Shown here piece by piece: positions 4,064-5,681 of a DNA stretch of 64,000 nt (within the stretch, counting starts at the first letter, position 1; every line of letters starts with the position of its first letter). The stretch is from Bacteroidales bacterium UBA1181 (GTDB lineage Bacteria; Bacteroidota; Bacteroidia; Bacteroidales; Paludibacteraceae). Position numbers and translations under genes: made by a program. Below the pieces are notes generated by a model. It was given only the letters and a program-made list of their open reading frames with translations. It was not told the DNA's origin and ran no database searches. The stretch is taken from positions 147,137 to 211,136 of the forward strand of contig DBYR01000013.1 of NCBI GenBank assembly GCA_002310215.1. Reading direction: 5' to 3'.

Positions 4064-5269
4064 ATGGACAAAAATATTATTACATTTTATCCCGTAGACA
4101 ATGGGGATTGCATTCTTTTGGAAATGAAAAATGGTCTAAAGATGATGTGGGACTGCAAGTTTAGAAACTCTGTGGAAAATTCAGATGACGAAAGCAAATT
4201 TGATGTGATTAATAATTTGCTAAATTACAAACTTGAAAAAAAGGTGAGTAAACTACCTTTCATAGATGCTTTTGTGCTATCACATCCTGATCAAGACCAT
4301 TGTCTGGGCTTTAACAACAAATTCTATTTGGGTGATCCTATAAAAATATCACAAAAGGACATTGATGCCCAAAAGATTCTTATTGGAGAATTATGGTATT
4401 CACCAAGAGTATTTATAGAACATACTGACGAATTATGTGTTGATGCCATTGCGTTTAAAAAAGAAGCAGATAGACGTATGCGATTGTTTAAGGAGGATCC
4501 TGTTAGAGCCAATCAAGATGGTAATAGAATAAGAATTGTAGGTTGGGCCGATCTTGACAATCTTGTTGGATTAGAAAAAAGGATCACCATTCCTGGCAGT
4601 GAAATTAACGAAGTAAATGGCCATAACTATAATGATTTCAGAATCTTTATTCATTCCCCATTTCGTAATGCGATTGAAAATAATGATAGAAATGAAACAA
4701 ACATTGTAATGCAATTTAGATTCGATTGGAATTCCATTAAGGATGTGGCAAATTTGATTCTTGGTGGTGATGCTGAATGGCGTGTTTGGGAGAAAATCGT
4801 TAAATTAAGTGATGTGAAAACTCTTAAATGGGACCTTTTTGAAGCTCCACATCATTGTAGTTGGTCGTTCTTTGCTGACGATAGGGAAAATGACAAACCC
4901 AATAAGAGTTCTTTGGATTTTCTGGCAAAACGAAATAGCAAAGCAATTATTGTGTCATCGTCAAAGTATATTTCTCATAAAGATTCTAATCCTCCATGCA
5001 AAAAAGCAAAAAATAGATATGTAAAAGAAATAGGCGAAAATAATTTTTACTGTACTGGGGGAGATTGTATTGATGGCACTCCCTCTCCTCTTGCCTTTGA
5101 GGTTACAAATTCTGGGTTCAAAAAAATTGAGCATAAAATCGATGATAGTCAAGCACATGATTATGCAGATGCATTTATCAATGGTAAATTAAAACTAGGA
5201 GCTACAGGATTAAATCTATCGTTGGGTAATTCTATTGCAAAGTCTGGGGGATTCTATGGTAAAGAATAA
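4064..5269 (+). CDS. Metallo-beta-lactamase-fold hydrolase of the ComEC/Rec2 (COG2333)-like type
   Basis: 401 aa. The motifs appear in the canonical order for ComEC-type MBL domains: VDNGDCILLE, a variant HxHxDH motif (VLSHPDQDHCLGF), GGDAEWRVWE and EAPHHCSW (compare HHGS). Confidence 0.8.
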   Translation: MDKNIITFYPVDNGDCILLEMKNGLKMMWDCKFRNSVENSDDESKFDVINNLLNYKLEKKVSKLPFIDAFVLSHPDQDHCLGFNNKFYLGDPIKISQKDIDAQKILIGELWYSPRVFIEHTDELCVDAIAFKKEADRRMRLFKEDPVRANQDGNRIRIVGWADLDNLVGLEKRITIPGSEINEVNGHNYNDFRIFIHSPFRNAIENNDRNETNIVMQFRFDWNSIKDVANLILGGDAEWRVWEKIVKLSDVKTLKWDLFEAPHHCSWSFFADDRENDKPNKSSLDFLAKRNSKAIIVSSSKYISHKDSNPPCKKAKNRYVKEIGENNFYCTGGDCIDGTPSPLAFEVTNSGFKKIEHKIDDSQAHDYADAFINGKLKLGATGLNLSLGNSIAKSGGFYGKE

Positions 5270-5681
5270 TTTTCATACATCAAATAATAACGACAAGCAA
5301 ATTGCCGCAATGAAACATTTTTATCCAAAATGCACATACATAAAAAGGGAGGGACAAGTGATTTTCACTTTTTGGTTAAAAGTATTAGATTCCCTTCCCG
5401 AGTATAAAGTCAAAATAATATACCAAGGGAATCTCCGACCCAAAGTGTTTGTGCTTTCCCCAAAGATTGTTGATCAAGCCAAACACACCTATAAAGATGG
5501 AAGTTTGTGTTTGTACCACGATCGCAATTTTAAATGGTCCTCATCAAAATTGATTGCGAAAAATATAGTTGGATGGACAGCGGCATGGATCTATTTTTAT
5601 GAGTACTGGTTACAAACAGGGAAATGGATAGCAAAAGAGGTTCCTCATTCCTTGCAACAAGACAAAACTCTAATGAATTAG
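5256..5681 (+). CDS. Small UBC/E2-fold-like protein (candidate prokaryotic E2)
   Basis: The ATG at 5256 overlaps the MBL gene stop by 14 nt. RPKVFVLSPKIVDQAKHTYKDGSLCLYHDRNFKWSSSKLIAKNIV aligns by eye with the UBC core PPKVxFxTKIyHPNIxxxGxICLDILkdqWSPAltIskvL. The ORF track also offers an alternative start at 5235. Confidence 0.6.
   Translation: MVKNNFHTSNNNDKQIAAMKHFYPKCTYIKREGQVIFTFWLKVLDSLPEYKVKIIYQGNLRPKVFVLSPKIVDQAKHTYKDGSLCLYHDRNFKWSSSKLIAKNIVGWTAAWIYFYEYWLQTGKWIAKEVPHSLQQDKTLMN

Follow-up and report, generated by a model that had tools for sequence, protein, structure and literature searches.

Two described bacterial systems come closest to the locus that we discuss here. In E2-CBASS, the 'short' form of type II CBASS (an anti-phage signalling system based on cyclic oligonucleotides), a nucleotidyltransferase of the cGAS/DncV-like kind (CD-NTase) is encoded immediately upstream of a stand-alone E2-like protein. 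In the Serratia marcescens pair CdnG-E2 (PDB 8HSB, 8YJY, 9KKB) this E2 (SmE2) cleaves its partner and is linked to it covalently, and neither E1 nor ATP is involved in the cleavage or the linkage (bioRxiv 10.1101/2022.05.25.493364; PMC12948482). For the second system, 6A-MBL, which has a metallo-beta-lactamase (MBL) enzyme, PMC11601596 describes a pathway in which a Cap2-related E2-E1 fusion works together with a JAB peptidase; this article and PMC13276650 cite 6A-MBL as a Pseudomonas system against phages, jumbo phages included. The present article concerns a stretch of 64,000 nucleotides, hereafter the window, from Bacteroidales bacterium UBA1181 (GenBank assembly GCA_002310215.1, contig DBYR01000013.1, positions 147,137 to 211,136 of the forward strand), which carries at 3348..5681 on its plus strand the genes of a four-pass transmembrane (4TM) protein, an MBL-fold hydrolase and an E2-like protein. 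We believe, with a probability of roughly 0.7, that these genes form a three-gene anti-phage operon, namely an E2-only, 'short' version of 6A-MBL, in which the E2 acts on the C-terminal tail of the hydrolase.

The locus shares with E2-CBASS the E2 family (PF26395), its fold and its catalytic Cys and His, probably (to judge by position) a second conserved His and a nearby Lys within the flexible C-terminal end of the E2, a partner gene lying immediately upstream with overlapping stop and start codons, and the lack of E1, JAB and E3. It differs in that the partner is an MBL hydrolase and not a CD-NTase, so that no cyclic-nucleotide signal is expected; moreover, the window has no CBASS effector, and its 4TM protein matches none of the PADLOC 4TM effector models. 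With 6A-MBL it shares an MBL enzyme that passes the equivalog NF058524, a C-terminus that ends in aromatic-Tyr-Gly, a homologous 4TM protein encoded alongside in Bacteroidota relatives, and a defence-island context. Here the difference is that the Cap2_3 fusion (Prok-E2_A E2, ThiF E1 and JAB) is missing and a stand-alone E2 of a different E2 family is found instead, while the MBL tail is about 25 residues longer, cyclase-type and, by prediction, folded. Phage protection by 6A-MBL has reportedly been demonstrated (van den Berg et al. 2024, Cell Host Microbe 32:1427) for a Pseudomonas Cap2_3-type system only.

The proposed short 6A-MBL would be to the Cap2_3 form of 6A-MBL what E2-CBASS is to the type II CBASS with Cap2 and Cap3. 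The latter (Ledvina et al., Jenson et al. 2023) follows the same logic, by which the C-terminal Gly of the system's own enzyme serves as a ubiquitin-like handle that regulates this enzyme; however, Cap2 is ATP-dependent, adenylating via its E1 domain, and has an Atg3/Atg10-like E2 domain in which the catalytic His is missing, and Cap3, a JAB peptidase, reverses the reaction. The assignment of the E2 fold is not in itself new, the family having been structurally characterised. A literature search for 6A-MBL, for Cap2/Cap3 with MBL and for E2-CBASS with MBL found no description of an E2-only MBL system, with the reservation that the primary 6A-MBL paper could still mention it. What is apparently new is the combination: an E2 of the E2-CBASS type serving a 6A-MBL hydrolase, a grafted cyclase-type module, and a conserved membrane partner.

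The E2-like protein and its active site

The original prediction, made by eye, ascribed a UBC/E2-like active-site signature to the 141-residue product of the open reading frame at 5256..5681 (plus strand, ATG start). This identity is borne out by profiles and by structure. Eighteen PADLOC CBASS 'E2' models match the protein (best PDLC00858, E 1.6e-34; weakest 1e-5), precomputed Pfam annotation assigns PF26395 'E2-CBASS' to an identical database protein (P0001) and to all 37 homologues, and a profile of the E2 family finds the solved S. marcescens E2 (8hsb_B) in the PDB with E 3.5e-12. The AlphaFold model, built on an alignment of 25 homologues, has a mean confidence (pLDDT) of 86.3 and is an alpha/beta UBC-like sandwich, as had been proposed. 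It consists of an N-terminal helix, four strands, a loop with His77 and Cys85, and a long helix 100-121, while the last ten residues (132-141) are disordered in the model, with pLDDT below 50. Foldseek places the CdnG-bound Serratia E2 first (8yjy_B, E 2.7e-6, query-normalised TM-score 0.74); after 8yjy_B and 8hsb_B come UFC1, UBE2S and UbcH5, and eukaryotic UBC-fold E2s are matched with a probability of 0.9-1.0 and a TM-score of about 0.45-0.5. By these profiles and by its predicted fold, the protein truly is a ubiquitin-E2-like enzyme and belongs to E2-CBASS, a family whose E2s act independently of E1. No relatives of it were found in viral contigs.

The alignment with the eukaryotic UBC consensus from which the prediction started (residues 55-107) is not significant when taken alone, because the eukaryotic Pfam model UQ_con fails to match: a scan with our local copy of Pfam-A, which includes UQ_con and does not include PF26395, returned nothing at E<=1. 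The relationship to eukaryotic UBC proteins is visible via the bacterial family and the fold, not via a direct sequence match. The window E2 has in common with UbcH5/UBE2D, UBE2S and UFC1 the alpha/beta architecture, the Cys loop after strand 4, a downstream Trp and the long helix. It differs from them in having no HPN motif and a flexible tail in place of helices 3 and 4, and its family, by analogy with the Serratia enzyme, would need no E1 and would use protease-like Cys/His chemistry.

The individual elements that had been listed are indeed all present: the RPKVFVL strand, which lies in the predicted fourth strand (residues 60-68), His77 eight residues before Cys85, G-S-L-C-L at 82-86, Trp94-Ser95 at 9-10 residues after the Cys, and the helix 100-121. 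The expectation that the His and the Cys are conserved among homologues also held. In the alignment of 25 homologues His77, Cys85, Trp94 and a block of helix aromatics are invariant and His131 is nearly so; among 46 non-identical E2s from genomic and metagenomic loci His77, Cys85, His131 and Trp94 are all invariant, in MBL-linked and cyclase-linked E2s alike.

The comparison of this His with the one of the HPN motif did not fare as well. The window E2 reads K-H-T-Y, and in the profile alignment to 8hsb_B His77 (codon 5484..5486) corresponds to the catalytic H87 of SmE2, which stands within P-H-L-Y, whereas Cys85 (codon 5508..5510, within L-C-L) corresponds to C101; a structural role of the HPN kind is not established. 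In SmE2 the substitutions C101A and H87A abolish both the cleavage of the partner after Gly and the covalent linkage, and, according to the authors, the catalytic His has no equivalent in human E2 (bioRxiv 10.1101/2022.05.25.493364). In our opinion, His77 is best read as the predicted general base of a Cys/His dyad, with Cys85 as the predicted nucleophile and thioester site, and not as the histidine of the eukaryotic HPN. Further, H152 of SmE2 tunes the interconversion of thioester and isopeptide, and K159 is the isopeptide acceptor; a role of G406 in the Serratia pair is documented as well (bioRxiv 10.1101/2022.05.25.493364; PMC12948482). His131 and Lys137 of the window E2 (His131-Lys137, 5646..5666, plus strand) are plausible counterparts of these residues by position; a Lys occurs no more than 9 residues after His131 in 23 of 24 E2 homologues, and the profile alignment to 8hsb_B stops short of these residues.

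The hydrolase, its tail and the membrane protein

The gene upstream of the E2 (4064..5269, plus strand) encodes a protein of 401 residues, which scores 326.2 bits over residues 8-351 against the NCBIfam equivalog NF058524, 6A-MBL_enzyme (cut-off 220); its core comprises residues 1-356. A scan with the local copy of Pfam-A gave no match, and 1160 homologues of the protein were found. The AlphaFold model (pLDDT 84.9 overall) is closest to 9ic4, the beta-lactamase-like nuclease domain of ComEC/Rec2 (Foldseek E 2.3e-14, target-normalised TM-score 0.73). The same chain is matched by sequence in a profile search, where the motif H74-P-D76-Q-D78-H79 (4283..4300, plus strand), of the HxDxDH form common to both proteins, aligns with THPDADH of ComEC. 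The predicted metal ligands H74, D76, D78, H79, H197, D236 and H263/H264 are invariant in an alignment of 40 homologues. The identity to ComEC is only 16%, however, and the window protein is predicted to be soluble and stand-alone, with extra helical insertions and an E2-binding tail and without the channel and OB domains. More speculatively, the effector is probably this hydrolase, working as a metal-dependent nuclease or phosphodiesterase.

It is the tail of this hydrolase that connects it with the E2. According to tblastn, the last ~41 residues are 45-61% identical to the C-termini of the CD-NTases that are encoded directly upstream of the E2 in E2-CBASS loci, whereas the MBL core never matches at these loci. 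The alignment of the two kinds of tail is clear-cut; it reads I-D-x-x-E-A-K-x-F-…-G-x-L-K-…-G-L-…-G-…-G-[FY]-[YH]-G and is followed by 2-5 residues, which in E2-CBASS are removable. The tail also matches the C-terminal end of the PADLOC cyclase model PDLC00820, and a profile of the MBL tail only, compared with 1.84 billion representative proteins, retrieved C-termini of cyclases (PDLC00820 by PADLOC) with E 2e-8 to 4e-5. This search gave 19 matches, five of which, with several partial stretches in long proteins, were set aside as probable repeat or low-complexity matches. A profile of cyclase and MBL tails together, run against an index of 5.8 billion proteins, returned five short fragments only and was uninformative.

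Most relatives of the hydrolase are 373-383 residues long and carry a short tail, K-P-H-[YF]-Y-G with 0-3 further residues; among the best 120 homologues, the short tail is found in 114 and the E2-type tail in 6. The window protein ends differently. In its model residues 361-372 form a helix and residues 377-379, 382-384 and 390-392 form strands, while 393-401 are disordered. By cryo-EM, the E2-binding motif of SmCdnG is a helix with a three-stranded sheet, and it has been deemed exclusive to the cyclases of E2-CBASS (Xiao et al., PMC12948482). The predicted helix and three strands of the MBL tail give the same layout, but on another class of enzyme. Hence the hydrolase carries a cyclase-type E2-docking module of ~43 residues (357-399; 5132..5260, plus strand; ending G-G-F-Y-G399) in place of the usual short tail. 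In the 40-homologue alignment Y398 is invariant and G399 is kept in at least 90% of the sequences.

Cleavage and attachment are predicted, by homology, after Gly399 (codon 5258..5260, plus strand), so that Lys400-Glu401 (5261..5266) would be removed. The two genes overlap by 14 nucleotides (5256..5269, plus strand), and the ATG of the E2 lies inside the codons of Tyr398-Gly399 (T-ATG-G). This junction, TTYTATGG, and the overlap recur in MBL-E2 loci and in cyclase-E2 loci. Such an overlap implies translational coupling and a joint inheritance of tail and E2. Given that the start codon of the E2 is embedded in the codons of the cleavage site and that the junction is kept in both kinds of operon, the tail and the E2 behave as one cassette. 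The original prediction regarded the coupling of a stand-alone E2 to a hydrolase as unusual. This is correct for the hydrolase, the usual partner being a CD-NTase, but an E2 that works without E1 has a precedent in E2-CBASS.

The first gene of the operon (3348..4058, plus strand) encodes a protein of 236 residues, for which hydropathy windows predict four membrane passes: two hydrophobic segments near the N-terminus and two near the C-terminus flank a soluble part, and a conserved YG-x-x-RN-x-LGG precedes the third of them. No family in Pfam, NCBIfam or PADLOC, including the 4TM effector models of the latter, matches it. It is 25-34% identical to the membrane protein found beside the MBL in three operons of the E2 type (loci L022, L030 and L037) and in a canonical one of the Cap2_3 type (L027), and it weakly matches the 237-residue protein of a 6A-MBL operon on an Emticicia plasmid.

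Proposed mechanism, related loci and alternative explanations

By analogy with SmE2, we propose that the E2 docks on the tail module of the hydrolase and that Cys85 and His77, acting as a cysteine protease, would cut after Gly399 and free Lys-Glu. The hydrolase would then be held as a Gly399~Cys85 thioester, with no ATP or E1 being consumed, and could be passed to lysines, for example to Lys137 in the E2's own tail or to lysines of other MBL molecules; the covalent E2-MBL or poly-MBL species would set the activity of the hydrolase. Since a stand-alone E2 and a cyclase-type tail replace Cap2_3, the conjugation would be ATP-independent and self-processing. The 4TM protein could, speculatively, be a membrane partner, a localiser or a co-effector of the hydrolase. 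A bolder version, which we put forward only tentatively and consider rather doubtful as a whole, is that the tail and the overlapping E2 gene are a portable ATP-independent ligation cassette, which moved, probably repeatedly, from CD-NTases to an unrelated class of enzyme and which here would polymerise or membrane-tether a ComEC-like nuclease, with its 4TM partner, against incoming phage DNA.

Several points weigh against a short 6A-MBL with this mechanism. Cleavage, thioester and conjugation are ascribed to the window pair by homology, at an identity between the window E2 and SmE2 of only about 20%. The confidence of the MBL model in the region of the tail is moderate (pLDDT 59-73), and the equivalence of H131 and K137 to H152 and K159 of SmE2 is one of position. 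No cyclic-nucleotide synthase or known effector is present, and our ideas on the sensing of infection and on the role of the 4TM protein are guesses. Conjugation could either activate the hydrolase or hold it in check. Finally, the pairing can decay: at four loci (L024-L026 and L032) only the last 218-268 residues of the MBL remain, including a complete tail, and there is no membrane gene, whereas the E2 is intact; these look like decaying copies.

The alternative that survives best, unlikely as it is in our opinion, holds that the E2 is only a processing and latching protease-inhibitor, which captures the MBL tail in the manner of an antitoxin, so that infection frees the nuclease and neither a polymer nor a conjugate with a target is made. 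Such a latch would agree with the resting species in Serratia, a reversible 1:1 covalent CdnG-E2 formed via K159 (bioRxiv 10.1101/2022.05.25.493364), with the fixed stoichiometry suggested by the gene overlap, and with the conserved Lys in the E2 tail. In E2-CBASS, on the other hand, poly-cGASylation raises the activity of the enzyme, and the E2 is needed for defence itself and not just for safety (bioRxiv 10.1101/2022.05.25.493364).

A second alternative takes the E2 for what remains of an E2-CBASS operon that decayed and lost its cyclase and effector; the E2 would stand beside an unrelated MBL by accident and have no function with it. At first sight the closest relatives invite this idea. 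E2s 45-57% identical to that of the window occur in 15 species-representative genomes, all of Bacteroidota, and on about 24 metagenomic contigs, in textbook E2-CBASS operons with the order CD-NTase, E2, 4TM effector or patatin, CD-NTase, E2, often with CapH/CapP-like regulators. Not one of the 15 GTDB species representatives has an MBL-linked E2, all being canonical E2-CBASS, and the closest named relatives (45-56% identity) all stand in complete cyclase-E2-effector operons. The loci with a shortened upstream gene mentioned above (L024-L026) further indicate that decayed copies exist. Within the window, no CD-NTase lies beside the E2; when three cyclases were compared with the whole 64 kb by tblastn, the 41-residue tail at 5138..5260 was the sole match.

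Against a mere remnant, the cyclase-type tail is part of the MBL reading frame, and the overlap of start and stop codons is conserved; MBL-associated E2s keep the catalytic residues without exception; and the block of transmembrane (TM) protein, MBL and E2 is kept in several lineages (MBL identity 36-74%). Among the metagenomic loci of the window's E2 clade, 9 of 34 are MBL-linked. MBL-E2 pairs with an E2-type tail are found in the window's own lineage (L001-L006), in L022/L023 (MBL 74% and E2 73% identical to the window), in L030 (62% and 51%), in one further pair (P0041/P0006), and in a second lineage (L033-L039 and L041) from gut and other metagenomes. The MBL core of the second lineage is only 36% identical to that of the window, yet it scores 352-354 bits against NF058524 and comes with the same tail and E2 family; the genes of this lineage run from a WYL regulator through MBL and E2 to a membrane protein, at times with a second ComEC-like MBL after it. 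Between the lineages the proportion of synonymous differences (pS) is about 0.8, i.e. saturated, while that of non-synonymous differences (pN) is 0.15-0.36 for MBL and E2. We conclude from these comparisons that purifying selection has kept the TM–MBL–E2 form in at least two divergent lineages, and in our view it is most improbable that the E2 is a functionless leftover. A rough neighbour-joining tree of the E2s, which is without support values, separates the MBL-associated E2s into two groups and places one of these inside the cyclase-associated E2s; this topology hints at more than one exchange.

The canonical 6A-MBL operons show what the E2 and the tail stand in for. Three of them (L027-L029) encode a homologous membrane protein, an MBL with a KPHYYG tail and a 716-residue fusion of Prok-E2_A, ThiF and Prok-JAB, the one of L027 passing NCBIfam NF058523 "6A-MBL system cap2_3" with 386 bits. 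The same canonical architecture is present on a plasmid of Emticicia oligotrophica. Among plasmid records, relatives of the E2 occur in 72 and 6A-MBL enzymes in 284, and inspection of two of these records showed the canonical types.

The related loci offer some further observations. L024 and L026 have a gene with a WYL domain on the downstream side. In the second lineage, a protein with WYL and WCX domains, the CapW/BrxR-type pair, is encoded directly upstream of the MBL (L033 1720-2736; L037 1696-2712), and its gene is preceded by a SecB-like one. In two operons of the E2 type (L022 6436-7299; L037 5157-6170) a second MBL-fold gene comes after the E2 or the membrane gene; it is shorter (287-337 residues) and, according to NCBIfam, ComEC/Avs1a-like, and tblastn found no counterpart of it in the window. 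Likewise, tblastn of the window found no CBASS effectors (4TM or patatin), no second MBL and no WYL regulator.

The remaining alternative, that this is a conventional E2 which receives a ubiquitin-like protein (Ubl) from an E1 encoded elsewhere, for instance by the ThiF-domain gene 4 kb downstream (9678..10478), and conjugates it to targets such as the hydrolase, has the UBC-like fold in its favour but is hardly credible, since that gene is most similar to TcdA, lies apart from the operon and is missing near L022, L030 and L033-L041, no beta-grasp Ubl or JAB gene is linked to the system, Pfam UQ_con does not match, and the family of the E2 works without E1 in vitro (bioRxiv 10.1101/2022.05.25.493364). 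The original prediction had stated that there is neither an E1 nor a Ubl partner nearby. Its first half stands; as to the second, the equivalent of ubiquitin would be the C-terminal ~43-residue module of the MBL itself. We also considered the ThiF gene, the only one of its type in the window, as the E1 of the system in its own right and rejected it as TcdA-like (a tRNA t6A dehydratase) and unlinked, standing behind the cellulase gene and another gene. No Cap2_3 is present in the 64 kb, the only similarity being the ThiF domain of this same gene (52 bits, cut-off 320).

Neighbouring genes and implications

The operon has divergent neighbours on the minus strand (1131..3014), an AbiLi-like AAA_21 ATPase (1722..3014; PADLOC AbiLi 2.4e-76, Pfam AAA_21) and RloB/AbiLii (1131..1712; PADLOC AbiLii 2.3e-17, Pfam RloB). 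In all likelihood they are a two-gene defence system of their own, located in the low-GC island that also holds the operon. From ~1000 to 5700 the GC content is 31-36%, whereas the flanks have 45-60%, as acquired defence islands typically show. An AAA_21 ATPase of 430-451 residues is found beside the block of TM protein, MBL and E2 or Cap2_3 in all four independent Bacteroidota contexts examined, namely the window, L022 (2388-3743), L030 (2624-3979) and L027 (9293-10648, directly after cap2_3 and on the same strand). These ATPases are mutually only 24-38% identical, and only the window copy has the RloB partner and the PADLOC AbiLi/AbiLii call. The recurrent ATPase may be an island neighbour or a fourth component of the system. 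The ATP-binding protein encoded upstream of the Emticicia plasmid operon (L067) has no detectable relation to them.

An abiF RNA motif (Rfam RF03085) is found at 1037..1073 on the plus strand with 58.5 bits (gathering threshold 37). It is intergenic, just past the 3' end of the minus-strand RloB/AbiLii gene, and no open reading frame follows on the plus strand for ~2 kb, so that its orientation is odd. At the other end of the operon, 8 nucleotides past the stop codon of the E2, there is an imperfect inverted repeat (5689..5725, plus strand; GGGAAAGATAG … CTATCTCTCCC; 10 of 11 positions paired, 15-nucleotide loop, then TTTA), which may be the terminator of the operon; it is absent from the listing of the consensus scan because of its long loop. 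The next gene (5821..7881) encodes a cellulase, whose counterparts in L002 and L005 carry the Pfam Cellulase domain and a type IX secretion system (T9SS) sorting tail. The near-identical contigs L001, L003, L004 and L006 have no counterpart of it and continue with the gene of a 446-residue protein; right at the border of the defence island, these strains differ by an insertion or deletion. Farther downstream, an open reading frame of 1836 codons (10764..16274, plus strand) contains several nearly identical internal repeats of ~170 residues (…TLSASANAVCVNDNVTLSASYGTATAI.WEKKEEGETAFADFSTDL…), which also give rise to long spurious antisense reading frames (e.g. 13233..14594) and to a local GC content of ~60%.

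What would a short 6A-MBL mean? First, E1-free ubiquitin-like chemistry would not be tied to cGAS-like cyclases, as the docking tail and the E2 travel together and fit another enzyme. If the cassette reading is true, "cGASylation" would be one instance of a general switch based on E2-driven self-conjugation. The MBL-E2 pairing is also a natural test of the effect of conjugation on an enzyme, independent of nucleotide signalling, and a two-protein version that works without E1, JAB and ATP would offer a simpler entry to 6A-MBL, a defence that is still poorly understood. The subtype escapes present annotation and defence-finder models; NCBIfam and PADLOC recognise only one half of it each. A short, genetically encodable tag together with a ligase of 16 kDa may further become a tool for protein ligation. 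Finally, the system adds a data point to the argument for an origin of ubiquitin signalling in single E2-like enzymes that regulate immune effectors.

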